From: Yoonia sp.
GTDB lineage: Archaea; Thermoplasmatota; Poseidoniia; Poseidoniales; Poseidoniaceae
Length of the DNA: 58,678 bases
NCBI GenBank assembly: GCA_964230945.1
Contig: CAXRJJ010000049.1
Location: forward strand, 1 to 58,678
Direction: 5' to 3'
Positions 2,936-27,951 of the stretch are shown here, in pieces. The position numbers were made by a program, and so were the translations under genes. Numbering within the stretch: position 1 is the first letter of the stretch; each line of letters begins with the position of its first letter. Below the pieces are notes generated by a model. It saw only the letters and a list, made by a program, of their open reading frames with translations, searched no databases and was not told the origin of the DNA.

Positions 2936-2952
2936 TATTTTCTTAGAGGTAA

Positions 2953-2958
2953 TTTATA
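2953..2958 (+). promoter_or_regulatory. Candidate archaeal TATA box (TTTATA)
   Basis: TTTATA within aggtaaTTTATAgcaag. It is the only TATA-like element close to the giant ORF, 53 nt before ATG 3011 and 164 nt before ATG 3122. Position-based inference only. Confidence 0.2.
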
Positions 2959-3121
2959 GCAAGTTTTCGCAATATTTGTGAATTTGGAAAATCGCTGATT
3001 TCTGAACAGTATGGCATTTTTTCAAATATTCTGTACCCCAATGCTCATAAGTGTCATAAGTTCTCCGAAGGCTTGCATACAGTCCGTATACGGAGTTGAT
3101 GACAATATGATAGGAAACAAC

Positions 3122-6100
3122 ATGAAGAAGACAACAATCTGGGGAGGGCTATTTAGCGCCCTATTCCTCTGTGCTTTGATGGCATTGATGCCATTCAGCA
3201 GCGTAGTGGCCCCAGCGAGCGAGACTGACTATACGAATGAGTCAGAGACGGCAGAAGAGAAAGCAGATCCTTTCTTCTTGCCAGAACAGATAGAACCAGT
3301 TAACTGGGAGTATGGTCTTGAGAACGAATTAGAAGGTATGAGGACTTGGAACCAGAAGGCCTTCGTGCATGATGGCGAGATTAAGTTGCTAACTGGCAGC
3401 GAACCAATCCATTATGCTGACAACGGTGTTTGGAAAGATATCGATGTCAACATCAAGGCCAATGCAAATGGCTGGGAAGTGACCGAGAACGCATTCGAGA
3501 CTTACTTCCCTGCTGATGTTGGTGCTGGTGTCACGATTCAGCTGGACCCTAACGTGGATCCACTGGTGACCGGTATTGCACCACAAGTCGTGACAATGGA
3601 TGAGTCCGGTGTTAACCCAATGGTTCACCGTGCCGCTCCTTCTCATGACGCAATCAGCGTTGGAGGAAACGTGATTCGCTATCCAGTCGCACAAGATTTC
3701 GACTTGGATTACGAGGTCACTTCAACTGGTGTCAAGCAGGATTTGATTATCCGCTCTCAGCCAGTTGTTGAGGAGATAGACTACTGGTTCGGACTGCGAG
3801 AAATTATGCGCCTACCAGTTGGATATGCTCTTTTCATTGGAGACGAAATGGTAGAGCACGAGATTCTCACTACTCAGGAACCGATGAGCATCCGCAGCCT
3901 AGAGACTGGTAGCCAGCTCGGAGAGATTCCACCTCCAGTGGTAATCGAGCCAGGGGCAGAGGCTCCATACATCGCCACATTCTTCGTCAGCGTTGAGAAT
4001 GGATTGATTTCCATCACTACCGCAGTCGAGACTTCTTGGTTGATGGATGAGAACCGCACCTTCCCTCTATCTCTTGATCCAAGCATCAAGCAGACTTCCA
4101 ACGCTGGTGGATACTGTTATGTCTATTACGGCTATTGCTATTCAAGCAGTTACCGATACATGTACAGGTATTACAATTCCCACTACTACATGCCATGGAG
4201 CAAGTATCAATTCAGCTCCAACAACCAACTGCCTTCCGGTGCAACCGCAAGTACAGTCAAGTGGAAGCAGTACATGCAATATTCATACGCATGGGGCAGC
4301 AATTCTCACACTGTTGCAATCATGAAGCAGTGTGGTACAGATGTCAGATATAATTACCAAATCACTACAGCTTCTTGTACCAGCACCAGTATGGGTAGCA
4401 GCGACCTGGGTACTGGATATGGTAATACCAAAGCAAGGAAGATGATCAGTTCGCAATGGAACAGTCCGAGCGTAGGTACTCTGGGTCTTGGTACAGGTTG
4501 GAAGTCAGCAACTCTGTCTACCAGTGGTACCAGTGATGTAGTCAGCGCATTGACCAGTAATGGCGTGATTGGTATGACATATCGAAACACCAACAGCAAT
4601 TACTACTACACTTACTCAAACCACGGTGGAACCAATAACGGATACCTCGAGATTTCCTATACTGGAGGTTCCGATACTACACCACCAACATCTGAATTCG
4701 TGCCATACGAAGCAACATCCTACAAGGAGGGTGCCCGTACCTTCTTCACTACCCTCAAGGATGGAGCTAGTATCGATACAACTTCCTCCGGTAAGCCACA
4801 TCTATACTACAGCATCAATGGTGGTTCATACACCAGTGTTGCAGCCACAAGTATTGGTACCTGCACAAGCAGCGCTACTGAGTGCCGATTTAAGGCATCT
4901 ACAGCAAGCATCAGTGCTGGAGACAGCGTGGATTACTACTGGGCATATCAAGATCTAGCTCAGACTGCAGGAATGAATCCAAACGGAAACAATTTCGCAA
5001 CTGATCCTGCTGGAGGAACCGGTTCGCCAAGCAGCGCTTCCGCTCCTTCCACACCTTACAACTTTGAAGTTGAAGATGTTGTGAATGCTGGAAATGCAAA
5101 GAAATTCGTTGTTTTGACAACTGATGTTTATGCAGGAAGCAACTGGAACCCTTCGAAGTTCTTCGACAGGCAGATGACATACTATGATGATAACGATGAG
5201 TTCGTATTCGAGTTTGACACAAGTAATTGTGGAACTGGATACAGTAATTCCTGTTTCTATGCATCTACCAGTTCAACCAATTTCTACAGCAACTGGGTGA
5301 CCCAGTGGACCACTTCACCTTCGAGCGGTTACAACGGCTTCGGCGGAACACGCTCTGGTAAGTCATTCCAGCACAAGGATTTGGGTGGATACCTAACTAT
5401 CTCTGCCCAGAATGGACCATCAATGAACTTGATTTATCATTATGATAGTTCGTCGAATGACTGGGGTCTTGTTGGACTTGATACTTCCACAGGTATCGAA
5501 GACAAGTTGACAGGTGGAACCACAAAGAACCACCGCTCTACCTATGGATACACCAAGGCTTGGAACATCAAGTTGGACGACATCTCCGGAACTGTTGGTA
5601 AGTTCGACTTCAACGGCACATACTCGTCCAGCAAATCTAACTGGATGTGCGTAGGTACCAACGGATTCTACTACTTCTTCCGTTCAACCAGCAGCAACCC
5701 AGGATGCTCATCTGGATACTACTACATCTACAGTAACTCCTACAGGTGGACTGGTTTCGCTCTGAACGCAGGATACTACGGTAGAATGGCCAGCACTGGT
5801 GACATGTCTTACAAGGTAAGCAAGGTCGCTCCAGAACCTGATCTTTCAAAGCCTAATGTGATTCACAATGTGATGAAGGACAGTCACTCTACAAAGAGGA
5901 CTTTCGCATTCAAGATTACTGATGCAGGAGAACCTCCATCTGGATTGAATACCTCATCCGCAGCAGGTGTTGGACCAACTCTCTACTATACGATTACAGA
6001 TGCTGATGGTACTGTTGGATCCCAGCAGAGCAAGGTATTGTCCCCTGATGATACCCGCAGCAACTGTGTATTGAATGCATGTACATGGACCGCAACACTA

Positions 6101-9100
6101 TCTGACTTGGAGCGAGAGAGTTCAATTTCTTACTACCTAAAGACTCAGGACCTTTCAACAGTAGCAAGTGGACCTAACGTCAACCAAACCTCTGCGAACA
6201 CCTTTGAGGTCGCATGGCCAAAGAAGGTCTTCATAGTGGAATGGCATGATATTGGATTCAATGACCAGTATACTTGTAATGTACAGGCAAGATTGTATGA
6301 TACCACGAACGAGATTGAGTTCCATTACGATCCAGATTGTGAAGTGTATTACGATTACGCAACTGTCGGTTATCAAGACCAGACACGAAACAAGGGAGCA
6401 ACTCTACGTGATGATCTTGGATACATGGGTAACACGGCAAAGGGTGTCGGTGGAAACCCACACGATGTCAACTACAGAATCTTCACTGACAGTAGTAGTC
6501 ATGGTTCGGAGGAATTCGATACTGGAGGCTTCACCGAGTTGACCAATTACAAGACCGCAATTACCGGCACCAGCAATGGCCGCCCATACCTGTACTACTG
6601 CTCCAGTTCATACTACTGGAACACCTACAAGGCTAATTGCGACGCTAACATCGACATGCCTGACGACTTCACCTTCGAGTACTTCGGAACCACCTACAAC
6701 GGTACAGTTTCGACCAACAAGGTGATGCTCAGCCGTTTCGCTGGAATGTACTTCAAGCAGACATCCTCAACCGCTCCAGAGCGTGCGATGACAACTTGGT
6801 ACAGCAACATGCCTGAATTGCCATACAAGAGCAATTCAGCTGCAAGACCAGGCCTAATCGCTCCATGGTGGGGTGGATACAGCGCATACTACTGTTATGA
6901 TACTACCAATGTTGACTGCAGTGTACGCTACCGAACCATGCCATTCGAGGGTAGGGGAACCGATATCGATGCAGATATTACTCAAGATACTTCTTGGGAT
7001 CTCATTGACAGCCCGATTCGCATCAATCCTTCAGGAGATTATCTTGCAATCAATGCTAACCTCAACATCGAGGAAGGCGTAGTGATTCAGGTTGCACAGG
7101 GCAAGGGAATTTCCTTTGATGGTTCTTGTGATAGAATGACTCTACAGGGTAACTCTGGAACCAACTCCAGTACTGGAGATTCCAATGGTATCCTCTTTGA
7201 GGGTCAGTACGGCCAGACTTGGAAGGGTATTTCCTTCACCGGAAGTTGCAGTACCGCTGCAGGAACCGATGACAGGCATGTCTTCAACTACACTACCTTT
7301 GCAAACACCACAGACTATGCAATATCTGCAGGTAGCCGACATGGAAACAGCCCATCTAGCAACTCTAACGTTGGAAACTTCACAATGCGCCATGTAGCCT
7401 TCAACAATGTAGGCGGAGCAATTTCCCACGGTAGTGGTCAGGGAACAGCATTCGCAATCAGCAATTTCGAGGTGTCGGATGCAAGCGACAGCTGTTTCAG
7501 CTTCCCAGCAGGATCTGATGTTTCTCTGACAGAAGGAGAAATGGACGGATGTAACTCTGGAAATGATGCTAGCGGTGGTGCAGTGACCTCTGATTCCGGA
7601 AGTGGTGGAAGCCTCTTTATGGAGAATGTCACCATTACCGACGCGCAGAAGAACGTTGTAAACACTGAACTGTCAGATGTAACTATAAGGAACGTTTCAG
7701 CAAGTTGGAGCGGAACTACCAATGGAGATTACGATATACGCCACACAGGAGCAGGACACCTAGAGTTGACTAACTTCGACTCAGATGATTATCCAAACTT
7801 CGAGTCTAATGCAATGACCTTTGCATTGGATGATGTTGATGTGGAGTCATCAATCAGTCTGTACCCTGGTGGATCCAGTTCCACAGCAAACGGACCATCT
7901 GGTTTGGATGCTAGCCTCAGCGATGTATCTGCTAACGGATTGAACGTTGCTAGATCAGCAATTTCTGGTAGTGATATTGATTTGAATGGCGGCGACCTAA
8001 GTATTTCTGGAAACAGCCCAAGCGCAGACCAGCAATCAATTACTGACTTGGAAGCAGGTGGAATAGGAATCAGTGGCTGTGGATTCAACATTGCTTTGAC
8101 CAATGTGGACCTAAGCGATACATCTGACACCGCTTACATCAGCAGCAGTTGTTCAAGCAGTTCAGCACCTAACACGCTTGTAGTGAACGACGGAAGTATT
8201 GCAACTGGTACCAGTTCAAACAACATCGTCTACGCTCGCAACTCCAAGATTACACTCGGAGATACTGACATAACAGGTCAGACTTCTTTCGGAAACAGCG
8301 TGGCCAAATCCAGCACAAATGGTGTCATCACATTGATTGATGTCACATGGCAAGGAAACGATTGTACTGACACGGATGGTTCGTGGGCTGGAGCAAGTGT
8401 TTGTTGGGTTGCTATATCCTCAAGCAGCGGACAGATTAACTTCGGTGGATCTGGAACAGCGGTCACCTTCAAGGAGAAGGCTGGTGCGCGCACCAACAAG
8501 GGCGGAATCGCAGTATCGACTTATGCATTGAATGCAGCAGGAACCGCAGCCACGTACTATCTAGGTACTCAGACCACAGATGGAAATGGTGAGGCTGAGG
8601 TATGGATTGTAACAAATGAACTATCTGGTTCCAGTTTGACTTCCCAGGCCCTTAGTGGTACATACTTCGATGCATCTGGACCAGCTGGTATCAACAGTAC
8701 TTTGAATGCTACATTCGGAATTGGAGACACCATGTATCTGCGTCTATCTCAGCCACCAATCGTGCTGAGCGATTCAGGAATGGACTGTGCCTACTTGGCT
8801 GCTAATGACAGCATCAAGGATAAGGATGAGGCCCCAGATGGCCAGCCTGCTGGTACATTCGTGCTCGATGATGGTTCAATCCAGATTCTAGCCGATCTAC
8901 ACATTGATGGGTGTGCTATCAAGTTGGTTGAGTCCTCAAAGTTCATCGTCAGTGGCGATGCTACATCTTCTCCAGTCTTGACCATAAGCAATGGTGGAAG
9001 CCTGATTTTGGAGTCTGGTTCTGAATTGAGAGCCGGTGTGGCAGCATATCCTGTCCACTTGGACATTGGAAATGGCGGAACCCTATCTCTGGATGCTTCG

Positions 9101-12100
9101 ACGATTAAGCAAATCAGGCAGGACAGTTCTGCTGGTGGCGCAATCATTGTCGGTAAGGGTGCAACTCTTGAGATGATCAATGGTTCAATCGCTTACGGAG
9201 ATTCAGCCAGCAGCAAGGACATGGCAACAATCATGGTAGACGGTGGAACATTCGCTGCTGATGACGCAAGCGTCATCAACAATGGTGGTACCGGAACCGG
9301 TGTTTGGTTCCAGAGAACAACTACTGTTGTGACGGATTTGACCGTGAGTGGTGCAGCCCGTGGAATCATGAGCAAGAATGCAGCACCAAGCGTCACTGGA
9401 TTTACCTTGACTAACAACGATGTTGGTGTGGAATTCTATGGAGGTATGTCATTGCCATCTATCTACCGAAGCACATTGTTGTCCGGTGAGGCAACTGGTT
9501 GGACCACTCATGCAATCGATTTGAGCGGTCAGGTTGATTCTGGCAAGCAATACCTACAGGTTGGATTCAATTCGATCTTTGGTGGAGGAAATGCCCACCC
9601 ACGCTACACTTACTACACCAGCAAGTACTACATGTTGTATGATAGAATGCGCTACGAAATCACCTTGGACGATGGAACCCAGTTCAACTATTCCTACGAC
9701 CAAGCTGGTAAGGACAGTGCAGGATACTGGAGCGATTCTTCCTCTGACAACTCCGATTACAGTGGATGGGGTCGATATGACTGCAACTACTATGGATACA
9801 GTCGAAACCCAGCTTACAGCGCATACAACTACATGTATTATCTAGCAAGGTATGCTTCACACTATGGTAGCAATGGATACTATGACTATCCAGACAACTT
9901 TGGATTCCGTTGGGAAGATGGTGGAGACATATCTTCTGGAACCATGTATTATCCATACCACTACTGGGGATACTACTACAACAACTACCATGCAATGTAT
10001 TCCAGTACTTACGCACCTCCTGAAGGTTTCAATGGACTATGGGGTAACTACAACATCTGTATTGACTATGCATACAACAATGCCTACTATATCACACCTG
10101 GAAAGGGTGCGAGAATGGCAATGCCAATCATCGATCTACAGAACACAGGAACAAACTCCGGAACATCTGGAAATATCGATACAGTAACTCTGTATGTTGA
10201 CGTTCTACACAACCGTGCAGATTACTATCAGGACCGTTTTGATATATTGGCACGAACTTCTGATGATCACAACGTCATGGGAGACTGGATGCGCGAGTCA
10301 GGAACACCATCCTTCAGCGATGGAACAATCACCGGTGCAGATGTTGGTATCGAGATTAGTGGTTCAGCTGCTGCTGGAGACGTCGAAGATGTGACCGTGA
10401 ACAGTCCAACCACCAGTGGAGTAGAAGTCACAGGTTCATCTGCTATCTCTTTCGATGGCTTGACTGTTAACGGTGGAGAGAACGGTGTCAAGGTGACCTA
10501 CACAGGTCGTGGCAAGGTTCACCTCAACAATATCGCACTAAACAACCAAAACAATGCTGGAATTCTATTCCAGAAGGATGTTTCTGGCGATTTGAGCGGA
10601 ACTATCACTGGAAGTGCTGGACCAGCTATTGAATATGGCTGGCTAACAAACACTGACAGGTCCTTCGAAAACCTTGATCTAAGTGGCAACGCGATTGGAA
10701 TTGAAACCGCTGGAAGTGGAGCCATAGAATTGTTTGATAGCGACTTCGCAAATACTGTCGATTTCAAGATTACCGGTTCAAGCTCAGTCGACTTCGTTGA
10801 TGGAACGGTAGATGAGAGCACAGTCTCCGTTTCTGGCGCTGGTATCTTCAAGCGTGCACGTAGTCTAGAAGTCACCGTCAATGCTGACAGCAATCCAATT
10901 GGAGAAGGCACTGATGTCTACTTGTTGGATAGCTCCTACAAGATGACTGGAAGTGGTGAGACCGATTCAAGTGGTGTCGCACAGGGACTGAGGTACTATA
11001 CTGCCCTTGTTGACAAGGTTGGCCTCACTAACCCCTCACTCAGCGGGTACAAATTGGGTACTGTAGCAAAGGTTGGAACCTACTCAGGAACAACCGGTGA
11101 CTTCCGCTACTACTACGATAGTGTAACACTAGATGCTAATGCAGCGTCTTCAGAGTCTGTGGATCTGGTTGAAAGGTTCGATGCTAGAGTTTGTTATTCA
11201 TTCTCTAGTACATCCTACACCATGTTGGCACAATGTGCTACCTCCACCTACCTCAGTACTAGCGGTCAAAGGACACTAAGTTGTGGAACTGGTTGTACAA
11301 TGAAAGAGTATGGATACTATGGTGGTGTTGTCTCTGACATGAGCAACATGAACATCATGGTCGACGTTCCGTTCATGTACATTGATGGTGGTAGCAACAA
11401 CAAGAACGAGTGGAACAACTCAGTTGTTATCATTACTGGTTCATACAGTTTCTACGGTGGTTCTGCTTGGAGAGCAACCTACCCATACAATGCTAAGTTG
11501 TATGTCGATGGTAGCGATTTCATAGCCATGAATGGAATGCAAGATAATGGACAACCCAACGGATACCAATTGGGATACTACTCTTGGTCGGATGTTAACC
11601 CGTGGTACAAGAACAGTAATTTCATCGGCGTTTCTACAATTGCAGCAGCCAATGAGAATGGAAACTGGATGCCTGACCACTTCGTTGTTGTTAACAACAC
11701 CATAGTCAGCAACACCGCAGTCGTTCCTGGAATCACCGCTCTAACCAACGATCAGTACTGTGTACACAATGGTGGAGTAAACGATGCAGAAATCACTGAC
11801 AACAAGTTCTACGATTGTGCAGTATCAGTACGTGCATGGCGTGGAAACACTTGGGGTATCAGTTCATCAAACTGGGGTGCTGACGACATGCTCATTGAAG
11901 ATAACGAGTTCAATGGCGGTGTTATCGACGTCTGGTTCGCATTGAGCAGCTATACTGATGATACCATTCTCAGAGGTAATACCCACACGGGTCCAGGAAT
12001 ATCCAGCTACGCTGTATATGCTCAAGACCAGCGAACAACAGGTACTCTGATTGAAGGAAACACTATTGACAATTCCGAAGAACCAATCTATCTACGTGGT

Positions 12101-15100
12101 GCTCTTGACTTCGAGATTAAGGACAACACCATTTATGGATTGGCAAACGCAGCTGAGGCTGGAATCTATGTCAGGAATGGATATGGTGAAATCGATGGAA
12201 ACACCTTGGTTGACGCCGATGGTGGAATTCTAGTTGATGGAATCAAGTACGGATACGATGTATCGGTCACTGACAACACCATCTCTAGCAGCGCCGGCCG
12301 CACAGCAATCAGCGCGGTTGGAATCTGGGCAGAGGACTGTGGTTCATCCACCTTCACTACTGGTGGCAACACCATCACTGTGATGGGTAATGCAATTGTT
12401 GCTGATGGATGCGACATCGAGGATACAGGAAGCAATCTGATTGGAACTGGTGGAACCGGATCAATGGTTTACACAGTGAACATGATGGCTACCTACTTCT
12501 CTCCGCAGAACATAACAATCTCCGAAGGTGATTCTATCCGCTGGAGATTGAAGGAATATGCACCTGGTAGCAACTACCAGCACAGCTCAGTATCCAATGA
12601 TACCGCAAGTGGTGCTCCTCTGTGGGATTCGGGTCCATTGAACCTAGGTTCAACTTACACCCGTCAGTTCAACACTGCAGGAACCTACGACTACCATTGT
12701 GGTCAGCACCCATCCTCAATGTTCGGAACAATCACCGTACAGGCAGCAGGAACCGGTTCCAGTACTTACTACAGTACAGGATTCGATGTTGCTGGAGGTA
12801 ATGATGACATTGTACTGAATGGTACCTCGATTACAGGATTCACCACTGCTTACGAGCAGACTGGCGGAAGTCTGAGTCTGATAGGCGATGCTTTGTTGTC
12901 AGCCGATGATTACGGTGCAGACCTTGACAACGTGGATGTGTCCTCTAACGGAGCAAGCCTTGTGACAACTTCCGCAACCGGAGTAGGAATGTACTTCACC
13001 GGTGGAGGCAGTTTGAATCTAGTTGACCTATCGACTGATTCTGCCCGCGGTGTTCACATCAACGGTGAGACTGATGGCGAGTTCGACTGGAATGGTGGAA
13101 CCATCAGCAGCGGTACCGGACTGTATGCTGAAGACAAGGCAGTTGGAGATATCCAGAACATGACATGGAGCGATGCCGATGTGCAGATCCACGCAGGTGA
13201 TAACACTAAGATTACCAGCGTTGGAAACACCTTGGATCCAAGCAAGATGAGTGTATCTAGTACCGGAGAAGTCTATGAGGCCAATCTACTAGATTTGGGT
13301 GTGACACACACCAATTCACCAATCAGCAATGTCGGTCTATTGATTCAGTCTGAGGGTGGCTCTAACGTAGCCTACGTCAGCCCTGATATGAGGAGCGATG
13401 CAATCTCTGTTGCGACCGCTGGAGACAGTGGAGACCTCAGTGATTGGACTGGTAATGAGAAGAACCCAGCCGATGATGCACGACCTGGAGTAGTCTCCAG
13501 CGATGGCGCCGGTGAGGACTTCATGGTGACTTGGGATCAGACCAACCTGTACCTCGCACTGACTGGAGTCGACATGGGAGCAGGCGACCTACTGATCTTC
13601 ATCGATTCAGCAAGTCAGGGAAGCACTTCTGGTTGGGAGTGGGATGGAACTACACCTACCTTCAACCACGCTGCTGATTATGCGTTCTTCGCAGAGAATG
13701 GCGACGATTCACCAAACGATGGAGACACAACTTACACATGGGGATTGAGGAAGTATTCCGATCCTAACTGGGTAGCTGACTCCTGTCAGAACATGCAGGC
13801 TTTCATTGGATGGAGCGACAACACCAACACCGAGGTCAAGATTCCTTGGAGTTGTATCGGTTCCCCATCTGATGGCGACAAGGTTCGTTTGAGCGCTGTG
13901 GTCTTGGGAGAGAGCGATGGTAGCATCGCTAGTTCCCACCCAAGCACTGGGCACGTCAAGTTGACTCTTGGACAGACCAGTCTTTCCGATGGTATGTTGA
14001 ACGACAAGCGCCTCAACTACAGAGAGTTCATCGGTAGTACCACACCAAGTGCAGCTGACGAGTACACTGTCACTGTCAAGGTCGATGCACCTGATGGCTG
14101 TGAAGATGATTGGGGCGTTCTGGCTGACTTGGATATGTCCGCAAACCGTGATGAGTCCATTGACATCCTACGTGCTTGTCCAGTCATCTCTGGCATCACC
14201 GATGTCGAGTACGATGAAGATTCTGGAGCGCACACAATCTCCTTGACAGACAAGGCTGCTGATTTGCAGGATGCTGCGGTTGATCTAACCTGGACCTACG
14301 CTGACGATTATTCAACCAACGAGGCATCTCTACTGAGTGTCAGTCTGAGCGGCCATGAGTTGACAATAACTCCAGCAGACAACCAGTTCGGAACTTACCT
14401 CATCGATTTGACCGTTGAGGACAGCCACGGATTGACTGACAGTGAGACCTTCATGGTCACCGTCAACAACGTCAACGACAAGCCGATTATCTGTAATAGT
14501 GCACGCAGCGATTGTATGCTAGTGTTCTCGGATGACGGATTCGACAACCTCAACATGCTTGATGAAGGATGGGTTGAGCACAAGAAGACACTTGGTTCAA
14601 CAATCAGCTCACCATTCATTACTGACCAGTACAATGAGCAGAACCAGACCTTGGCTAACTCTGAGGATGTACCACAGATCTACACATGGGGCGCAACTGT
14701 CGACGAAGACTGTGTTGCTTTCACTGTAGAGGTTCTACTGAACGAGTTGTGGATCAACGAGAACATGCAGAATGAGTTGGGTGGCGTATGTACCATCACA
14801 ATGACTCTGTCCGACGGAGCATCAGTTAACGATGCTGCGGATGCAGTTGATGTCACCTTCACCATCAACCCTGTTAACGATGTACCAGTGATTCCAGATT
14901 ACGATGTATCTGGAGACAGCCACATCACCGATGGAACTGGTGCGTCGATTGCAACACCATGGTCTGTGACCGTGTTGGAAGACACTGGTTGTGAAGATGG
15001 AGTTTGTGTGAACACAGATGAGTTGACTTTCAACCTCGTTAACATGAAGGAAGACAACGACCACAATGATGAGGATCTGTCCTGGACATGGGAAGAGATT

Positions 15101-16651
15101 AGCAGCAGTTGTGATGTTGACAAGTACTTCGAGTCAATCGAGATTGTAGGAGACAACATCAAGTTCACCCTGATTCAGGATGCAACAACCAACGCTCCTC
15201 CAGAAGAGAAGGACTACTTGGACGACAATGGTATCCACCAGGAGCCACCGCCAAGCATGGATGAATTCTGTGCAATCAAGTTGACACTAAGCGATACTGC
15301 AACTGCACCTTCGTACATCCCTAACTACGGTCTGGCCTCGGCTAGCTACAAGCAGGAGAGCACTGAGAAGTTGTTCAAGATCCGTGTTGATAACACACCA
15401 GAGTTGGTCGCTGACTACCTCTTTGATGTCGACGAGGGAATTGACTTCAACAGTGTACAGTTCATCATGCCTGGTACTCACGTACCAGTCGATGTCACCA
15501 TCAAGCACGAGGGTGATGAGGGACCATACAAGTACGATCAGTTGCTGAAGGTATCTTTCCTAAGTGATGGTGCAGATGGATTGACTGTCAGGGACACCTA
15601 CTACGTCGTGCCACCAGCATATGGCAAGTCGGAGGAGTTCACCAGCAAGGTTCTGATTGAAGAGACAACCACCCGTGTTGGTGCACGTGTCGATGTCATG
15701 ACCTGCAGGGCAGAAGCCTGTCCAAGCCCATCGGCTGCAACACCAAGCGACTTCATCAGCAATGTTCCGCCAGCGCATCAGGCTGAGGCAACGCTGTCGC
15801 CATGGAGTTCACCAGGAACTGTTGGATACTCATCTGCACAGGATGTTTACTCCCAGCGTAGACCTGCCCTAGAAGACAAGGATTGGTTGAACAACGTCAT
15901 GTTCACTTCGACCATCGATTCGGACCCAGAGGGTATCCTTGACTCCGGACAGGAACTACCTGTAATGGTAGACACCATCTCACCAGCGTCTGTGCCATCG
16001 TTTGCACCAGGCTTCGCAGCCATCAGCGCTGCTGGTCTATTCGTCGCTGGATTGATGTTGGCAAGCAGCCGCCGCCGCATGGATGAGGAGGAGCTAGAGG
16101 CTCTATCCATGGTTGATGACGAACAGGCTGTCAGCCCAGTTATCGCTACCATCCTTATGGTTGCAATCACTGTGGTTCTGTCTGGTGTTGTCTACGTGTG
16201 GGCAAGCGATTTGGCAGATCAGCCAAGCAAGTCGGTTCCAAGAATCGGTTTCAAGGTTGAGAAGGTCGATCCAGGCCAGAACGGCTACTGGTCCATCCAG
16301 GTAATCAGCGCTAAGGAGCCAATTGCAACACAGGCAACTGTTGTTCAGTTGGAGTGGGTAAATGCTTCAGGCAGTCAGATTGAGTCATACAGATTGGACA
16401 ACACTGAGGGTGTGTACGGATTCGCTCCGGTCAATTCGGAAAGTTTCGTCACCTTCTCAGACAGTATCGTCTGTGATTCTGCTACTGAGTGTACATCCAC
16501 TTTCGGAGACGGTGATGCAATCCACATCAGTATGACTGATAGCAGTGGAGAGTTGCTAACCGAAGGTGTTCGTGTCACTCTGAAGTACGTGCCAGTTGGA
16601 TTGGGTACTGCAAGTGTGTTGAAGACTTGGAACCTCGAGATTGGAAGCTGA
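3122..16651 (+). CDS. Giant (about 4,500 aa) secreted mosaic surface/adhesin-like protein. Contains Tyr-rich regions, right-handed beta-helix (PbH1-like) repeats, a cupredoxin domain, cadherin-like VNDxP repeats, a PGF-CTERM-like segment and a pilin-like tail.
   Basis: A single uninterrupted frame runs 3011-16651. The preferred start is ATG 3122 (MKKTTIWGGLFSALFLCALMALMPFSSVVAPASE, a signal-peptide-like N-terminus); ATG 3011 and 3107 are alternatives. Beta-helix repeats lie at about 7080-9500 and 11685-12445 (NTIxxN...GIxV). Cadherin-like modules end in VTVNNVNDKPI and FTINPVNDVPV (about 14130-14890). Confidence 0.9.
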   Translation: MKKTTIWGGLFSALFLCALMALMPFSSVVAPASETDYTNESETAEEKADPFFLPEQIEPVNWEYGLENELEGMRTWNQKAFVHDGEIKLLTGSEPIHYADNGVWKDIDVNIKANANGWEVTENAFETYFPADVGAGVTIQLDPNVDPLVTGIAPQVVTMDESGVNPMVHRAAPSHDAISVGGNVIRYPVAQDFDLDYEVTSTGVKQDLIIRSQPVVEEIDYWFGLREIMRLPVGYALFIGDEMVEHEILTTQEPMSIRSLETGSQLGEIPPPVVIEPGAEAPYIATFFVSVENGLISITTAVETSWLMDENRTFPLSLDPSIKQTSNAGGYCYVYYGYCYSSSYRYMYRYYNSHYYMPWSKYQFSSNNQLPSGATASTVKWKQYMQYSYAWGSNSHTVAIMKQCGTDVRYNYQITTASCTSTSMGSSDLGTGYGNTKARKMISSQWNSPSVGTLGLGTGWKSATLSTSGTSDVVSALTSNGVIGMTYRNTNSNYYYTYSNHGGTNNGYLEISYTGGSDTTPPTSEFVPYEATSYKEGARTFFTTLKDGASIDTTSSGKPHLYYSINGGSYTSVAATSIGTCTSSATECRFKASTASISAGDSVDYYWAYQDLAQTAGMNPNGNNFATDPAGGTGSPSSASAPSTPYNFEVEDVVNAGNAKKFVVLTTDVYAGSNWNPSKFFDRQMTYYDDNDEFVFEFDTSNCGTGYSNSCFYASTSSTNFYSNWVTQWTTSPSSGYNGFGGTRSGKSFQHKDLGGYLTISAQNGPSMNLIYHYDSSSNDWGLVGLDTSTGIEDKLTGGTTKNHRSTYGYTKAWNIKLDDISGTVGKFDFNGTYSSSKSNWMCVGTNGFYYFFRSTSSNPGCSSGYYYIYSNSYRWTGFALNAGYYGRMASTGDMSYKVSKVAPEPDLSKPNVIHNVMKDSHSTKRTFAFKITDAGEPPSGLNTSSAAGVGPTLYYTITDADGTVGSQQSKVLSPDDTRSNCVLNACTWTATLSDLERESSISYYLKTQDLSTVASGPNVNQTSANTFEVAWPKKVFIVEWHDIGFNDQYTCNVQARLYDTTNEIEFHYDPDCEVYYDYATVGYQDQTRNKGATLRDDLGYMGNTAKGVGGNPHDVNYRIFTDSSSHGSEEFDTGGFTELTNYKTAITGTSNGRPYLYYCSSSYYWNTYKANCDANIDMPDDFTFEYFGTTYNGTVSTNKVMLSRFAGMYFKQTSSTAPERAMTTWYSNMPELPYKSNSAARPGLIAPWWGGYSAYYCYDTTNVDCSVRYRTMPFEGRGTDIDADITQDTSWDLIDSPIRINPSGDYLAINANLNIEEGVVIQVAQGKGISFDGSCDRMTLQGNSGTNSSTGDSNGILFEGQYGQTWKGISFTGSCSTAAGTDDRHVFNYTTFANTTDYAISAGSRHGNSPSSNSNVGNFTMRHVAFNNVGGAISHGSGQGTAFAISNFEVSDASDSCFSFPAGSDVSLTEGEMDGCNSGNDASGGAVTSDSGSGGSLFMENVTITDAQKNVVNTELSDVTIRNVSASWSGTTNGDYDIRHTGAGHLELTNFDSDDYPNFESNAMTFALDDVDVESSISLYPGGSSSTANGPSGLDASLSDVSANGLNVARSAISGSDIDLNGGDLSISGNSPSADQQSITDLEAGGIGISGCGFNIALTNVDLSDTSDTAYISSSCSSSSAPNTLVVNDGSIATGTSSNNIVYARNSKITLGDTDITGQTSFGNSVAKSSTNGVITLIDVTWQGNDCTDTDGSWAGASVCWVAISSSSGQINFGGSGTAVTFKEKAGARTNKGGIAVSTYALNAAGTAATYYLGTQTTDGNGEAEVWIVTNELSGSSLTSQALSGTYFDASGPAGINSTLNATFGIGDTMYLRLSQPPIVLSDSGMDCAYLAANDSIKDKDEAPDGQPAGTFVLDDGSIQILADLHIDGCAIKLVESSKFIVSGDATSSPVLTISNGGSLILESGSELRAGVAAYPVHLDIGNGGTLSLDASTIKQIRQDSSAGGAIIVGKGATLEMINGSIAYGDSASSKDMATIMVDGGTFAADDASVINNGGTGTGVWFQRTTTVVTDLTVSGAARGIMSKNAAPSVTGFTLTNNDVGVEFYGGMSLPSIYRSTLLSGEATGWTTHAIDLSGQVDSGKQYLQVGFNSIFGGGNAHPRYTYYTSKYYMLYDRMRYEITLDDGTQFNYSYDQAGKDSAGYWSDSSSDNSDYSGWGRYDCNYYGYSRNPAYSAYNYMYYLARYASHYGSNGYYDYPDNFGFRWEDGGDISSGTMYYPYHYWGYYYNNYHAMYSSTYAPPEGFNGLWGNYNICIDYAYNNAYYITPGKGARMAMPIIDLQNTGTNSGTSGNIDTVTLYVDVLHNRADYYQDRFDILARTSDDHNVMGDWMRESGTPSFSDGTITGADVGIEISGSAAAGDVEDVTVNSPTTSGVEVTGSSAISFDGLTVNGGENGVKVTYTGRGKVHLNNIALNNQNNAGILFQKDVSGDLSGTITGSAGPAIEYGWLTNTDRSFENLDLSGNAIGIETAGSGAIELFDSDFANTVDFKITGSSSVDFVDGTVDESTVSVSGAGIFKRARSLEVTVNADSNPIGEGTDVYLLDSSYKMTGSGETDSSGVAQGLRYYTALVDKVGLTNPSLSGYKLGTVAKVGTYSGTTGDFRYYYDSVTLDANAASSESVDLVERFDARVCYSFSSTSYTMLAQCATSTYLSTSGQRTLSCGTGCTMKEYGYYGGVVSDMSNMNIMVDVPFMYIDGGSNNKNEWNNSVVIITGSYSFYGGSAWRATYPYNAKLYVDGSDFIAMNGMQDNGQPNGYQLGYYSWSDVNPWYKNSNFIGVSTIAAANENGNWMPDHFVVVNNTIVSNTAVVPGITALTNDQYCVHNGGVNDAEITDNKFYDCAVSVRAWRGNTWGISSSNWGADDMLIEDNEFNGGVIDVWFALSSYTDDTILRGNTHTGPGISSYAVYAQDQRTTGTLIEGNTIDNSEEPIYLRGALDFEIKDNTIYGLANAAEAGIYVRNGYGEIDGNTLVDADGGILVDGIKYGYDVSVTDNTISSSAGRTAISAVGIWAEDCGSSTFTTGGNTITVMGNAIVADGCDIEDTGSNLIGTGGTGSMVYTVNMMATYFSPQNITISEGDSIRWRLKEYAPGSNYQHSSVSNDTASGAPLWDSGPLNLGSTYTRQFNTAGTYDYHCGQHPSSMFGTITVQAAGTGSSTYYSTGFDVAGGNDDIVLNGTSITGFTTAYEQTGGSLSLIGDALLSADDYGADLDNVDVSSNGASLVTTSATGVGMYFTGGGSLNLVDLSTDSARGVHINGETDGEFDWNGGTISSGTGLYAEDKAVGDIQNMTWSDADVQIHAGDNTKITSVGNTLDPSKMSVSSTGEVYEANLLDLGVTHTNSPISNVGLLIQSEGGSNVAYVSPDMRSDAISVATAGDSGDLSDWTGNEKNPADDARPGVVSSDGAGEDFMVTWDQTNLYLALTGVDMGAGDLLIFIDSASQGSTSGWEWDGTTPTFNHAADYAFFAENGDDSPNDGDTTYTWGLRKYSDPNWVADSCQNMQAFIGWSDNTNTEVKIPWSCIGSPSDGDKVRLSAVVLGESDGSIASSHPSTGHVKLTLGQTSLSDGMLNDKRLNYREFIGSTTPSAADEYTVTVKVDAPDGCEDDWGVLADLDMSANRDESIDILRACPVISGITDVEYDEDSGAHTISLTDKAADLQDAAVDLTWTYADDYSTNEASLLSVSLSGHELTITPADNQFGTYLIDLTVEDSHGLTDSETFMVTVNNVNDKPIICNSARSDCMLVFSDDGFDNLNMLDEGWVEHKKTLGSTISSPFITDQYNEQNQTLANSEDVPQIYTWGATVDEDCVAFTVEVLLNELWINENMQNELGGVCTITMTLSDGASVNDAADAVDVTFTINPVNDVPVIPDYDVSGDSHITDGTGASIATPWSVTVLEDTGCEDGVCVNTDELTFNLVNMKEDNDHNDEDLSWTWEEISSSCDVDKYFESIEIVGDNIKFTLIQDATTNAPPEEKDYLDDNGIHQEPPPSMDEFCAIKLTLSDTATAPSYIPNYGLASASYKQESTEKLFKIRVDNTPELVADYLFDVDEGIDFNSVQFIMPGTHVPVDVTIKHEGDEGPYKYDQLLKVSFLSDGADGLTVRDTYYVVPPAYGKSEEFTSKVLIEETTTRVGARVDVMTCRAEACPSPSAATPSDFISNVPPAHQAEATLSPWSSPGTVGYSSAQDVYSQRRPALEDKDWLNNVMFTSTIDSDPEGILDSGQELPVMVDTISPASVPSFAPGFAAISAAGLFVAGLMLASSRRRMDEEELEALSMVDDEQAVSPVIATILMVAITVVLSGVVYVWASDLADQPSKSVPRIGFKVEKVDPGQNGYWSIQVISAKEPIATQATVVQLEWVNASGSQIESYRLDNTEGVYGFAPVNSESFVTFSDSIVCDSATECTSTFGDGDAIHISMTDSSGELLTEGVRVTLKYVPVGLGTASVLKTWNLEIGS
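12464..12742 (+). other. Embedded cupredoxin (type-1 blue-copper) domain within the giant ORF
   Basis: The segment reads MVYTVNMMATYFSPQNITISEGDSIRWRL...YQHSSV...GTYDYHCGQHPSSMFGTITVQ. Candidate ligands are His (12581-12583), Cys (12698-12700), His (12707-12709) and Met (12719-12721), in the pattern H...C-x2-H-x3-M. The flanking Y-x-Y-x-C and M-x-G-x-I-x-V are typical of plastocyanin/amicyanin/halocyanin. Confidence 0.7.
16007..16078 (+). other. PGF-CTERM-like archaeosortase sorting signal, located internally
   Basis: The sequence is PGF-AAISAAGLFVAGLMLASS-RRR, preceded by a Ser/Pro linker (SPASVPSFA). It has the tripartite layout of a PGF-CTERM: PGF, a hydrophobic helix and an Arg cluster. 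The next codon is ATG, not a stop. Confidence 0.6.
16109..16651 (+). other. Archaeal type-IV-pilin-like (Pilin_N/DUF1628-type) module, in-frame with the giant ORF; possibly an independent CDS
   Basis: M-VDDEQ-AVSPVIATILMVAITVVLSGVVYVWA matches the class III signal peptide plus hydrophobic helix hallmark of this family (xSPVIGxILMVAITVxLA). The module is about 180 aa, the size of stand-alone family members. Alternative start ATG 16079. AGAGG lies 9 nt upstream of ATG 16109. Confidence 0.6.
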
Positions 16652-16741: not shown

Positions 16742-17446
16742 TTGTATCCATTGGTAGGTGATGTGTTGACCAGTGTTCGTTGTGTTGCCTTTGATTGTGA
16801 CGGCGTCCTTGCGGATGCAGTATCATCTTGGCGTACACTACACGATCATTTTGGCACTGATACCGGAGAGATGTTGGCCAAGTTCATCGCTAGAGAAATC
16901 AATGATGAAGAGTTCATGCGCTATGACATCGCTCTGTGGAAATCTGTTCAAGAAGAGATTCATCGGGACGAACTATTCAGGGCATACTCTGGACTCAAAT
17001 TGATACCAGGTGCTCGTGAAGTAGTTCAGGCTCTGAAGGAAAGAGGCATCTTGGTGGTTATCATCAGTGCTGGTGTAGACTTGTTCGTTTCGTCAATCGC
17101 TGCAATGCTCAAAGTCGATGATTGGATAGCTAATGGCTTCAAGTTTGACGAGGATGGGCTGTTGCTCGACGAGGGTATCATGCGTGTCAGCGCACACGAC
17201 AAAGCTAGTGCAATTGATAGGCTCCTAGAGATGCATGACTTGACCCCGGAACAATTGGTCAGCGTCGGCGACAGTGAGGTGGATCTATCTATGCAAGTAG
17301 AAGGTTCAACATTCATCGGATTCAATCCTAGCCGTGAATCGTCCCATTCTGCTTTTGCAAATGCAGGGGTTCCTGTTGTGGAGAGCCGCGACTTGAGAGA
17401 TATTTGGAACCACTTATTTGGTGAGGATTTCCACCCAAAGGACTGA
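16742..17446 (+). CDS. HAD-superfamily hydrolase, phosphoserine-phosphatase-like (subfamily IB)
   Basis: Motif I is AFDCDGVLAD, motif II IISAG, and motif IV GDSEVD. There is no ATG before motif I; the start is TTG 16742 or GTG 16763. Confidence 0.7.
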   Translation: MYPLVGDVLTSVRCVAFDCDGVLADAVSSWRTLHDHFGTDTGEMLAKFIAREINDEEFMRYDIALWKSVQEEIHRDELFRAYSGLKLIPGAREVVQALKERGILVVIISAGVDLFVSSIAAMLKVDDWIANGFKFDEDGLLLDEGIMRVSAHDKASAIDRLLEMHDLTPEQLVSVGDSEVDLSMQVEGSTFIGFNPSRESSHSAFANAGVPVVESRDLRDIWNHLFGEDFHPKD

Positions 17447-17453
17447 AGCAATC

Positions 17454-18749
17454 GTGCAGTTTCGGTTGTTTGTGGCCAACCGTAGGGCAGTCTCCTTGTT
17501 CTTGGTATCCTTGCTGTTCCTCAGCAGTGGTTGTCTAGGGAATAATGCCGAACCAGGTTCTACAGATTCCGATGTTGGTTCCAAGATTGAATTAGTCATA
17601 TGGTCAACTTATGAAGTCGATTCAAAGGAAGAAGAAGGGTTTCTTGATTCCTTAGAAATATGGAAAGATGCAAATCCAGAGGTAGAGGTGGTGGTAGAAC
17701 CCAAGCCTTTCTTACAGGCAGTAAATGCCTACAAGGTAGCGGCATTGGGAGGCGAAGCACCAGATTTGATGAGGTTCTCGAATGATCAATTGGGAAGTAT
17801 AGGACCAATCAGAGACCGTGGTAGTCCACTCTTAGAGGATCTTAGGCCTTGGTTGACACCAATACAGAGAGAAGTTTGGGACCCTGTGGCTCTGCAATCG
17901 ATGCGACATGGAGAGGAATTGCTTGCTCTACCTGTGTCTCAGGATTGTGTCACTTTGTTTTACAACAAAGCATTGTTCGATGAGGAAGGACTTGCATATC
18001 CTGATGAGTATTGGACCACTGATGATTTGCTCAATGCCGCTCAACAACTGACATTTGGCGAACAGGTTGGCCTTTCTGTTCCCATCAAAGACCCCTATCG
18101 CTGGTTTGCTTTGAATAGTGGATACGGCGGCCAATTATTCGATTCAGAGGGTAACCCTAGTTTGGATTCCAATGGCTCGTCTGAAGCCTTAGAATTCTGG
18201 TTAGATCTTGAACTTGAACATGAAATCGTTCCTACTGGAACCAATATTGAGACTATGAAGAATCACTTCATTGAAGGCAGGGCTGCAATGATCATCGATG
18301 GCCCTTGGCAATGGCCAACCTATGAGAAGGCAAAGATGGATTTGGGGCAGTCACTATTACCGATAGTTTCTGAAACAGGATTACGAATGTCACCGATGGT
18401 TGGTTTCAAGGGTTGGTCGGTTTCTAAGCAAAGCCAACACAAAGAGGCGTCAGTGAGTCTTGCTCTATTCCTTTCTAGTGAAATAGTACAGAAAGAGGCT
18501 GCAGAGGATACTCGTACCATGCCGGTCTCAGAATCATTGTACGATGATGCAGAGTTGCTGGAAGATACGGTATTAGCGGGATTTATCGAGCAGGCAAAGT
18601 ATGGTTTTCCTGCACCAACCAGTAGGGCCATGACCAAGATATACTCGCATCTTCCTACAGCAATCGAAAATGCCTATCTTGAAACAAAGACTCCTGCACA
18701 GGCTTTGAGTGACGCGAATACAGCATTGATTGAGGAGTTGGAGTCATGA
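17454..18749 (+). CDS. ABC transporter substrate-binding protein (MalE-like sugar-binding family 1), lipoprotein-type
   Basis: A lipobox-like LLFLSSGC follows a basic N-terminus. The body is family-1 SBP-like (APDLMRFSNDQLG..., GPWQWPTY). The start was re-picked to GTG 17454, just after the upstream stop; the track start TTG 17418 overlaps the HAD gene. Confidence 0.8.
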   Translation: MQFRLFVANRRAVSLFLVSLLFLSSGCLGNNAEPGSTDSDVGSKIELVIWSTYEVDSKEEEGFLDSLEIWKDANPEVEVVVEPKPFLQAVNAYKVAALGGEAPDLMRFSNDQLGSIGPIRDRGSPLLEDLRPWLTPIQREVWDPVALQSMRHGEELLALPVSQDCVTLFYNKALFDEEGLAYPDEYWTTDDLLNAAQQLTFGEQVGLSVPIKDPYRWFALNSGYGGQLFDSEGNPSLDSNGSSEALEFWLDLELEHEIVPTGTNIETMKNHFIEGRAAMIIDGPWQWPTYEKAKMDLGQSLLPIVSETGLRMSPMVGFKGWSVSKQSQHKEASVSLALFLSSEIVQKEAAEDTRTMPVSESLYDDAELLEDTVLAGFIEQAKYGFPAPTSRAMTKIYSHLPTAIENAYLETKTPAQALSDANTALIEELES

Positions 18750-21417: not shown

Positions 21418-21430
21418 ATGGGGTGATGCA

Positions 21431-22501: not shown

Positions 22502-22505
22502 TTCG

Positions 22506-26598: not shown

Positions 26599-26621
26599 GC
26601 TTCGCACCCTTGTTGAACGAG

Positions 26622-27899: not shown

Positions 27900-27951
27900 G
27901 TCAACCCGAACTGCCGAAAACCTTTGACAACATCATCCCTTCGCGGGGCTT

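Follow-up and report, generated by a model that had tools for sequence, protein, structure and literature searches.

The 58.7-kb stretch of DNA analyzed here (hereafter, the window) encodes, as read from its sequence, a giant adhesin-like surface protein of ~4,500 residues that continues in frame into a complete type IV pilin, an arrangement kept across the Poseidoniales. A giant precursor that encloses a pilin together with the pilin's own signal is apparently new to the literature. The gene comprises the following elements (arrows indicate presumed cleavage):

2952..2960, + strand: TATA-like element aatttatag, candidate promoter 5′ of the giant gene
3011..16651, + strand: giant surface-protein ORF, 4546 aa from the first ATG (ORF listing and translation)
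3122..3211, + strand: probable Sec-type signal peptide MKKTTIWGGLFSALFLCALMALMPFSSVVA↓PASE, aa 38-67 (read from the translation)
15992..16015, + strand: motif V-P-S-F-A-P-[S/G/T], aa 4328-4335, at the outer edge of TM1; includes PGF
16001..16069, + strand: TM1, aa 4331-4353, predicted stop-transfer anchor of the adhesin (AlphaFold helix)
16070..16129, + strand: putative cytoplasmic loop RRR-MDEEELEALSMVDDEQ-A, aa 4354-4373, resembling a class III leader
16127..16132, + strand: predicted class III signal peptidase site A4373↓V4374, cut between 16129 and 16130 (by homology)
16130..16204, + strand: pilin H-domain/TM2 VSPVIATILMVAITVVLSGVVYVWA, aa 4374-4398 (Pilin_N, TIGR02537, conservation)
16205..16648, + strand: globular β-sandwich head of the pilin, aa 4399-4546 (AlphaFold and Foldseek)

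Layout of the gene and reality of the fusion

The true start of the giant ORF is likely the ATG at 3122. From there, MKKTTIWGGLFSALFLCALMALMPFSSVVA↓PASE combines a basic n-region, a hydrophobic core, and a small-x-small site, and was judged by eye to be a probable Sec signal peptide. TATA-like hexamers match at four places in the window, none of them within a long ORF; one of the four is aatttatag, which may serve as the promoter of the giant gene. Pfam domains recognized in the protein are a cupredoxin (aa 3157-3244), Big_9 (aa 3724-3817), and Pilin_N (aa 4372-4423). Toward its end, VPSFAPGF is followed by a TM helix, RRR (codons at 16070-16078), a 17-residue acidic stretch, AVSPVIATILMVAITVVLSGV (beginning at nt 16127), and a domain of 148 residues. 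Translation thus reproduced what had originally been described: the frame stays open past RRR for 190 codons, with ATG codons at 16079 and 16109. The sequence AGAGG (16096-16100) lies 8 nt 5′ of the latter.

The original prediction had considered that two neighboring genes were merged by loss of a stop codon or an assembly error (frameshift or chimera). Many public "stand-alone" homologues of 175-210 aa, labeled type IV pilin or flagellin-like protein, would agree with such an artefact. However, one of them (L002) lies behind a scaffold gap of 10 N, another (L001) belongs to a giant gene that is broken up on a pilon-polished contig, and a third (P0135) starts within TM1; those that were traced to DNA or sequence are artefacts of gaps or fragmented genes. 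The other short matches stem mostly from contigs of ~1-5 kb. Of 533 GTDB loci encoding a relative, 80 species loci were fetched, and in all 80 of these independent assemblies the frame upstream of the pilin is open without interruption, for up to 3455 aa and to the edge of the locus. A complete fused orthologue of 4372 aa resides on a 3.0-Mb long-read contig (57x according to the contig name) and shares the layout of the window protein, with a cupredoxin and a C-terminal Pilin_N domain. Among 1.8 billion representative sequences, the close relatives with full-length data are all located at the extreme C-terminal end of proteins of 2,800-5,600 aa, and more distant relatives of the pilin module are ordinary N-terminal pilins. 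Because the frame is uninterrupted throughout these comparative data, the merged-gene reading is refuted and can practically be dismissed; the fusion of the giant protein and the pilin in one frame is real.

The pilin module and the loop preceding it

That the tail is pilin-like, as originally proposed, was confirmed by profile searches and by modeling. The whole protein matched Pilin_N (PF07790) with E=8e-9 (36.7 bits versus a cutoff of 25.2) and NCBIfam TIGR02537 with 41.8 bits (cutoff 20). With phmmer against the PDB, the module matched the Haloferax volcanii pilus subunit 8fj5 (E=2e-7); a Foldseek search with the AlphaFold model also ranked 8fj5 first (E=2.9e-5), followed by 8rey, 9myg, and 8gi2. 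The best PDB matches are filament-forming type IV pilins of Haloferax, Cuniculiplasma, and Natrinema, and archaeal type IV pilins and archaellins are likewise the top Foldseek matches of the head region. The model consists of an α-helix and a β-sandwich; the head is all-β with a pLDDT of ~82-94 over most of its length, and carries the conserved motifs LATQA and VYGFxPxNSxxxVTF.

Among 76 distinct orthologues, which are ~45% identical overall, every position of the H-domain is 92-100% identical, while two to five synonymous codons are used at nearly all sites having them. As the residues are near-invariant and the synonymous codons vary freely, selection on the H-domain acts strongly at the protein level, far above that on TM1, the sequence of which differs among orthologues. 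The H-domain of PilA from H. volcanii is conserved and essential for pilus formation (PMC4371748).

The loop between the two helices is 18-22 aa long in the 76 orthologues; it starts with two to three basic residues, to which end K/R is confined, and contains 7-11 acidic ones. It terminates in [D/E/N][D/E]-x-A, where the Ala at -1 is invariant and -3 is acidic or Asn.

TM1 and the fate of the precursor

The segment comprising PGF (aa 4333-4335, nt 16007-16015), a hydrophobic run ending at aa 4353, and RRR had been taken for a PGF-CTERM sorting signal. The corresponding model, TIGR04126, yielded no match at E≤1 with the protein or the tail, nor at E≤10 with the isolated 39-aa segment; the top score among orthologues was 8.9 bits, compared with a cutoff of 24.5. 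Apart from two distant orthologues (P0134 and P0136), PGF at this position is limited to the window and relatives 96-97% identical to it; a 77%-identical relative reads PGL and the remaining orthologues PS[ILVM] or PT[IL]. What is conserved at this edge is [S/G]-F-x-P, usually as VPSFAPS, followed by ~22 hydrophobic residues and RR: among 137 distinct fused sequences, PSFAP occurs in 106 and nearly every one has [S/G]-F-x-P, and F-x-P to RR spans 22 residues in 69/76 orthologues. With neither a profile match, nor conservation of PGF, nor a C-terminal position, the PGF-CTERM identity was rejected. TM1 is rather an internal membrane helix, covered in the AlphaFold model by a helix over tail residues 70-102.

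Because the loop and the H-domain match a class III (prepilin) signal residue for residue, class III cleavage is proposed, and we consider the following route somewhat more probable than all other explanations together. The gene would encode one precursor in which three elements set the topology. The N-terminal Sec signal would export ~4,300 residues of adhesin-like ectodomain until TM1 (VPSFAP...RR) halts transfer, leaving the loop, basic and then strongly acidic, in the cytoplasm. The pilin H-domain would then re-enter the membrane in an N-in/C-out orientation, which would place the β-sandwich head outside as well. The resulting TM hairpin would be cut by a class III signal peptidase (PibD/FlaK/ArlK type) at or beside A4373↓V4374 on the cytoplasmic face; the products, released 1:1, would be a mature pilin of 173 aa and an adhesin that stays anchored through TM1 and exposes a short acidic tail to the cytoplasm. 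To our knowledge, class III peptidases are not known to process a substrate in which a TM helix and a 4,300-residue domain precede the cleavage site, and literature searches revealed no such case. Neither a peptidase nor an assembly gene is present within the window; Poseidoniaceae have archaellum-type FlaH/I/J assembly genes (PMC6461757, PMC6864105, PMC6336850).

The original prediction had also envisaged one precursor with two processing signals. Its prepilin half fits best, but the archaeosortase half fails on profile match, motif conservation, and position. The pilin module and its fusion in one frame withstood every test. The initial observation is partly confirmed and its interpretation partly supported. 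In the dual scheme, an archaeosortase-like enzyme would cut at [S/G]-F-x-P and lipid-anchor or release the adhesin, prepilin peptidase would cut after the loop, and the segment from TM1 through the loop would be removed as a spacer. The order of motif, TM helix, and Arg cluster is typical of sorting signals, the motif is conserved (and reads PGF in the two distant orthologues), and weak, sub-threshold matches were obtained to the CTERM-type models LAVTG, Heimdall-CTERM, MYXO-CTERM, and PVV-CTERM. Sortase-type systems, however, usually have many substrates, and here the motif is limited to one protein family: no other protein within 1.5 Mb of related loci contained a VPSFAP-type motif. PGF was absent from all 99 ORFs in these loci that have a C-terminal TM helix, and four other surface proteins of the window terminate in plain TM anchors. 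Dual processing is thus considered very improbable. Slightly less remote, yet still disfavored, is a nested gene: transcription or translation initiated within the loop (at ATG 16079 or 16109) would produce the pilin, also or exclusively, and the pilin would then be in excess over the adhesin. A loop Met is present in 61/76 orthologues (in 49 of the 61, 7-11 residues before the site), GAGG/GGAG resembling a Shine-Dalgarno sequence precedes 44% of loop Mets versus 3.7% of other internal Mets, and a metatranscriptomic study on MG-II/III Euryarchaeota reports a very active transcription start at a DUF1628 (Pilin_N) gene, perhaps this one, perhaps another (PMC5069720). But 15 orthologues lack a loop Met and in 12 the sole Met is at -2; the would-be leaders are devoid of K/R in 61/61 cases, whereas 100 of 101 canonical leaders contain at least one. 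The Shine-Dalgarno-like motifs arise incidentally from Glu/Asp codons, without bias toward GAG: GAA, if anything, is favored in the loop (68% versus 59% elsewhere in the gene). A TATA-like element within 180 nt upstream was found in 0/76 orthologues, conservation is not raised at the synonymous sites of TM1 and the loop, and the frame is never broken, although a merely adjacent gene would not need an open one.

Doubtful, but the most serious competitor, is a hairpin that is never cleaved: TM1 and the pilin-like helix would form a permanent double anchor, the β-sandwich would be a pilin-derived, re-used, membrane-proximal domain of the same polypeptide, and through its H-domain the adhesin may be docked to pili or to further components of the envelope. 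The topology of such a hairpin is coherent, with RR and the acidic loop on the inside and either flank on the outside, literature searches gave no precedent for internal class III processing, and position -2, if the cut is at A↓V, is charged in only 4/76 orthologues compared with 73% of canonical pilins. A passive anchor, however, leaves unexplained why, across an order, 25 helix residues are near-invariant and the Ala at -1 invariant while TM1 varies freely, and why loop length and charge distribution follow those of a class III leader.

Comparison with canonical pilins

The site A4373↓V4374 is predicted by homology to those at which PilA1-6 of H. volcanii are processed (DA↓VS, RA↓VS; PMC4371748). 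A charged residue at -2 has been described as critical to archaeal prepilin recognition (PMC4371748), which speaks against a cut at A↓V; this objection is partly offset, since 32/76 fused orthologues match [D/E][G/A/S]↓A when the cut is shifted upstream by one residue, and the Q at -2 is found in canonical pilins of the same family, too. In these N-terminal pilins, the leader consists of M, a K/R-rich part, and [D/E][E/Q/K/D][A/G], with K/R at the N-terminal end as in the loop; it measures 7-31 residues, a range that includes the loop, and the DEQA↓VSPVI context of the window occurs there identically. Canonical modular pilins of a marine euryarchaeal MAG (L083 and L084) have nearly the same H-domain. 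As the H-domain of the module matches that of the organism's canonical pilins, pilin released by class III cleavage would be expected to enter the pool from which their type IV filaments are assembled. Made 1:1 with a partner of 4,300 aa, it is an implausible major subunit of the filament; one may speculate that it most plausibly acts as a low-abundance subunit, minor or adhesin-associated.

The pilin module of the giant gene

The giant adhesin is encoded in a single open reading frame, the elements of which are listed here together with those of its tail.

3011–16651, + strand: giant gene, 4546 codons from the mechanically listed ATG 3011
16007–16015, + strand: PGF
16070–16078, + strand: RRR
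16079 and 16109, + strand: ATG codons
16096–16100, + strand: AGAGG
aa 4331–4353: first transmembrane helix (TM1)
aa 4354–4373: loop
aa 4374–4398: second transmembrane helix (TM2), the pilin H-domain
aa 4399–4546: head

The nucleotide positions of the tail elements agree with those of the original prediction. Translation is probably initiated at ATG 3122 rather than at ATG 3011, which would place 37 extra residues (window 3011–3121) in front; the N-terminus starting from ATG 3122, MKKTTIWGGLFSALFLCALMALMPFSSVVA↓PASE (↓, cleavage site), looks by eye like a Sec signal peptide. Strikingly Tyr-rich stretches of low complexity, such as YCYVYYGYCYSSSYRYMYRYYNSHYY and YDCNYYGYSRNPAYSAYNYMYYLARYASHYGSNGYYDYPD, occur in the adhesin at aa ∼365–400 (window ∼4100–4300) and aa ∼2100–2230 (window ∼9300–9700). 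The tail reads ...SPASVPSFAPGFAAISAAGLFVAGLMLASS-RRR-MDEEELEALSMVDDEQ-AVSPVIATILMVAITVVLSGVVYVWAS..., after which ∼148 more residues follow.

That this tail is an archaeal type IV pilin, as had been proposed from its motif, was borne out by every approach taken. Pilin_N (PF07790) matched aa 4372–4423 of the giant protein with 36.7 bits, profile HMM scores ranging from 36.7 to 40.4 bits (curated cutoff 25.2), and TIGR02537, the archaellin/type IV pilin N-terminal domain, scored 41.8–46.7 bits (41.8 for the giant protein; cutoff 20). Searching the sequences of the PDB with phmmer retrieved the type IV pilus subunit of Haloferax volcanii (8fj5; E = 2e-7) and also PilA2 and PilA1 of Natrinema. The last 283 residues were modeled with AlphaFold2 from an alignment of 120 sequences (mean pLDDT 73; head mostly 82–94 in 10-residue blocks); in the model, TM1 and the pilin H-domain each form a helix, and the head is all-beta. 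When this model was compared with the PDB using Foldseek, 8fj5 again ranked first (E = 2.9e-5, probability 1.0), followed by the Cuniculiplasma filament 8rey, the Natrinema structures 9myg and 8gi2, and then archaellins. Thus, HMM, motif, and fold all make the module a member of the Pilin_N family. It fails one defining feature of prepilins, the N-terminal signal: the motif begins only at residue 4373 of 4546, and is likewise not N-terminal in 80 of 80 orthologous loci; the position of the signal makes the module a variant of the family.

Conservation of the fusion across Poseidoniales

With the last 283 residues as query, 1617 homologous matches were retrieved, many of them Poseidoniales proteins aligned over 98% of the query and thus having the region preceding TM1, TM1 itself, the loop, and the pilin in one chain. 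In a scan of GTDB, using one genome per species, 533 loci were found to encode a relative; of these, 80 were retrieved, all from MAGs assigned to Poseidoniales, Poseidoniaceae, or Poseidonia. Upstream of AVSPVIATIL, the frame was open to the edge of the locus in all 80, for up to 3455 codons. On a 3.0-Mb contig labeled 57x (locus L085), a complete orthologue of 4372 aa has the same layout of cupredoxin and C-terminal Pilin_N domains, and its downstream neighbors, the genes for the DNA polymerase small subunit and CinA, are those of the window. The in-frame fusion thus holds in all of these loci, and the proposal that two genes had been merged by stop-codon loss or misassembly is refuted by the 80 open frames and by the orthologue on the long contig. 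The giant gene appears to be syntenic and present across the order.

When 1.8 billion representative sequences were searched exhaustively with HMMER for the pilin module, the relatives fell cleanly into two kinds. Close ones (E < 1e-20, where full-length data were available) always formed the extreme C-terminus of proteins of 2,785–5,559 aa, whereas distant ones (E around 1e-8) were pilins of the ordinary kind, in which the motif lies at residues 7–50. Three database proteins that seemed to be stand-alone versions of the module were rejected: P0106 (locus L002) lies behind a 10-N scaffold gap (4340–4360) inside a duplicated-looking SFAPS motif region, P0039 (locus L001) is a piece of a giant gene that is fragmented on its pilon-polished contig, and P0135 begins within TM1. 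The remaining short matches came mostly from contigs of ∼1–5 kb. Fragments of the giant gene are present in public databases (P0002–P0120) as stand-alone genes annotated 'type IV pilin' or 'flagellin-like protein'. In the MAG Poseidonia sp. JJ.4, the giant gene and its pilin tail are found on two contigs (L056 and L060) that are 84% identical at the nucleotide level over 7.6 kb; the two copies are either paralogues or come from two strains placed in one bin.

In the window, an alpha-glucan utilization cluster (17418–32409) lies between the giant gene with an adjoining HAD hydrolase gene and the genes for the DNA polymerase small subunit and CinA. It encodes a solute-binding protein, two permeases, a MalK-like ATPase, an alpha-amylase with a CBM, a phosphorylase, a GH77 4-alpha-glucanotransferase, and a GH57/glucodextranase-like surface enzyme of 1485 aa. 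As the cluster is missing from the corresponding interval in the three loci inspected (L001, L002, and L085), it looks like an insertion. A second very large ORF (53625–58678, + strand; at least 1684 codons, start near 53.7 kb) has a signal-anchor-like N-terminus (...MILVAMFLLADIAYPFL...) and runs past the end of the window.

Poseidoniales (Marine Group II), which are uncultured, are the dominant archaea in surface ocean waters; to our knowledge, their attachment to particles has been inferred from gene lists only. The adhesin–pilin fusion is conserved across this ecologically dominant order and is directly testable.

The junction and its possible processing

The segment in front of the pilin had been taken for a PGF-CTERM signal, the substrate of archaeosortase A. 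It does contain a hydrophobic span of 22 residues followed by RR or RRR, a generic feature common to any stop-transfer anchor. However, TIGR04126 matched neither the giant protein nor its tail nor the isolated segment, and none of the 36–39-aa segments of six orthologues reached the threshold (best score 8.9 bits; cutoff 24.5). PGF occurred at this position only in the window and in two relatives that are 96–97% identical (L003 and L004); PGL stands there in a 77% identical relative, and PS[ILVM] or PT[IL] in all others. What is conserved is an element three residues upstream, [S/G]-F-x-P, which mostly reads VPSFAPS (PSFAP in 106 of 137 distinct sequences); in two distant orthologues, it is at this place that PGF is read. 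Moreover, 190 codons follow the Arg cluster, and the segment is non-terminal in every orthologue. Three of the five features defining a PGF-CTERM domain (HMM match, PGF signature, and C-terminal location) were thus tested and failed, and the segment is not such a domain. Among 99 ORFs with a C-terminal transmembrane helix in 1.5 Mb of related loci, none had PGF, and in the window plus these loci, neither the SFAP motif nor further pilin motifs were encountered outside the giant-gene family. Four other proteins of the window with secretion or surface domains (5–2593, 22467–24974, 27952–32409, and 45664–48387) end in a single transmembrane helix and a short charged tail, which, judged from these ORFs, appears to be the default mode of surface anchoring in this organism.

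The junction was compared in 76 distinct orthologues. Close to the membrane, the adhesin has a conserved region, RRPxLEDxDW(C/L)NN. TM1 varies in sequence, but F-x-P and RR are separated by 22 residues in 69 of them. From RR to the Ala preceding VSPV, the loop spans 18–22 residues, 7–11 of which are acidic, with 2–3 basic residues at its start only. It ends in [D/E/N][D/E]-x-A (RRR...DDEQ-A↓VSPVIATILMVAITVVLSGVVYVWA in the window), the Ala (−1) being invariant and the aligned −3 column acidic in 89%, occasionally Asn. The 25 residues after the loop (VSPVIATILMVAITVVLSGV[V/I]YVWA) are 92–100% identical at each position, compared with an overall identity of only ∼45%. As two to five synonymous codons are in use at nearly all H-domain sites that have them, the constraint acts on the protein and not on the DNA. 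Synonymous-site conservation did not point convincingly to an embedded element; the slight dip seen at codons 88–94 of the tail alignment is attributable to clade-restricted residues. Canonical N-terminal leaders of the same family consist of M, a K/R-rich stretch, and [D/E][E/Q/K/D][A/G] before VSPVIA..., and the exact context of the window, ...DEQA-VSPVI..., recurs in several of them. In H. volcanii, processing of PilA1-6 depends on PibD at sites tabulated as DA↓VS or RA↓VS, and their H-domain is almost fully conserved and needed for pilus formation (PMC4371748). Because loop, H-domain, and canonical leaders agree in these features, loop and TM2 together read as an intact class III signal, with the stop-transfer Arg cluster that closes TM1 serving, as far as the sequence tells, as its basic n-region. 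An unrelated protein of 202 aa from a Logan assembly (P0222) has two hydrophobic segments and then, at residue ∼95, the pilin motif ...HDREA-VSPVIAVILMVAITVVLAAV...; this could be a further internal class III-like signal, or the start of the protein may have been mis-called.

The reading that we consider somewhat probable is that of a single precursor forming a transmembrane hairpin, which class III signal peptidase would cut into an anchored adhesin and a pilin. The adhesin ectodomain would be exported via Sec, transfer would stop at TM1 and leave the loop in the cytoplasm, the H-domain would re-insert with its N-terminus inside, and the peptidase would cleave at or beside A4373↓V4374. Two products in a 1:1 ratio would result, the TM1-anchored adhesin and a mature pilin of 173 aa. 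A charged residue at −2 has been described as critical for recognition of archaeal prepilins (PMC4371748), and the fact that it is found in only 4 of 76 orthologues if the cut is A↓V counts against this very site; in reply, [D/E][G/A/S]↓A, one residue upstream, would suit 32 of 76, and canonical family members also occur with Q at −2. A marine euryarchaeal MAG encodes, next to each other, two canonical modular pilins of 601 and 503 aa whose H-domain is nearly that of the giant-gene tail, and FlaH/I/J-type assembly genes or operons are present in MGIIa genomes (PMC6461757, PMC6864105, PMC6336850). It is therefore plausible that the released pilin would join a shared assembly pool for filaments. 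Given the cost of a 1:1 ratio, it would more plausibly act as a minor or adhesin-associated subunit than as the major subunit of the filament. No gene for pilus assembly, a peptidase, or a sortase was found within the 58.7-kb window.

The topology would also suit a two-helix hairpin that is never cleaved, which leaves the invariance of H-domain and −1 Ala, and the leader-like loop, unexplained and which we regard as possible, though rather unlikely. Production of the pilin from a start codon within the loop has frequent loop Met residues and an enrichment of Shine–Dalgarno-like motifs upstream in its favor, and TSS mapping by mdRNA-seq in the Red Sea recorded a very active TSS at a DUF1628 gene of MG-II/III, which may or may not be the giant-gene tail (PMC5069720). 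Yet, 15 of 76 orthologues have no Met in the loop, and in 12, Met occurs only at −2; none of the would-be leaders contains K/R, whereas 100 of 101 canonical leaders have at least one; and the Shine–Dalgarno-like motifs follow from the Glu/Asp codons, without a bias for GAG. A TATA-like element was upstream in 0 of 76 orthologues, which is a weak test, as the genome has hardly any motifs of this kind. An internal start is, on balance, improbable. In the 58.7 kb, TATA-like hexamers (TTTAWA, TATAWA, and similar) number four (2953, 35375, 35747, and 35883), one of them ∼170 nt upstream of the probable start of the giant gene, and none in the 13.6 kb of the gene itself; this scarcity suggests that spurious promoters are strongly avoided in coding DNA.

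The original prediction had also envisaged one precursor with two successive processing signals; of these, the prepilin signal stands, and the PGF-CTERM signal fails by HMM, conservation, and position. Archaeosortase-type processing at [S/G]-F-x-P instead, for which the generic tripartite shape speaks and nothing more, is highly improbable in view of the same unmatched HMM, unconserved PGF, and internal segment. A more elaborate polyprotein, with the internal class III cut and a second cut at [S/G]-F-x-P that would remove TM1 and loop, hand the adhesin to the pilin, and display it on a filament, is unlikely, if less so than an internal start; if true, it would amount to a built-in, stoichiometric delivery of tip adhesins in the most abundant planktonic archaea of the ocean.

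Comparison with known systems

The layout of adhesin, transmembrane helix, and pilin was absent from the literature found on Poseidoniales, from reviews, and from a 2026 survey of archaeal type IV filament systems; the searches yielded neither a paper linking Poseidoniales to pilins or archaeosortase nor a described polyprotein with an internal class III signal peptidase site. The parts are of known kinds (Sec signal, transmembrane anchor, class III signal, and type IV pilin), and it is their arrangement that breaks the rule of an N-terminal class III signal. If the precursor is cleaved, prepilin peptidase substrates extend to internal sites of membrane-hairpin precursors, and adhesin and pilin would be coupled at fixed stoichiometry in a new way.

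Among the closest counterparts are the Pilin_N/DUF1628 adhesion pilins (PilA1-6 of H. volcanii, 8fj5; PilA1/PilA2 of Natrinema, 9myg/8gi2; Cuniculiplasma, 8rey), which share with the tail the HMM family, the site and H-domain ...[D/E]xA↓VSPVI(A/G)xILMVAITV..., and the fold of helix and beta-sandwich; the H-domain, kept identical among the PilA1-6 paralogues, is likewise kept in the giant-gene tail. They are, however, stand-alone proteins of 130–170 aa with the class III signal at the extreme N-terminus, whereas in the giant gene, the signal lies ∼4,370 residues in, and the cytoplasmic tail of the preceding transmembrane anchor serves as n-region. Substrates of archaeosortase A such as the S-layer glycoprotein of H. 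volcanii resemble the adhesin in that a motif, ∼20 hydrophobic residues, and an Arg cluster end a large surface protein; they differ by HMM and conserved PGF, and in the giant gene, the segment is internal and restricted to a single protein family. In the bindosome of Sulfolobus, a class III signal and H-domain display sugar-binding proteins that do not form filaments, but there, the signal is N-terminal, the cargo follows it, and no transmembrane helix precedes. Non-pilin tip adhesins of the PilY1/PilC type and their cognate minor pilins in bacterial type IV pili are a functional analogy only, a large adhesin with a low-abundance pilin, as they are encoded by separate genes and have no sequence relationship to the giant protein.

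Modular pilins, finally, such as PilB/PilC of Streptococcus sanguinis and archaeal proteins of 503–829 aa (loci L083/L084), join a pilin covalently to large adhesion-type domains, and the H-domain of the archaeal ones is nearly that of the giant-gene tail. In known modular pilins, the extra module comes after the pilin and is therefore carried on the filament. In the giant gene, this order is reversed: the large part comes before the pilin, and because a transmembrane helix and a leader-like loop lie between them, the predicted processing would disconnect adhesin and pilin.
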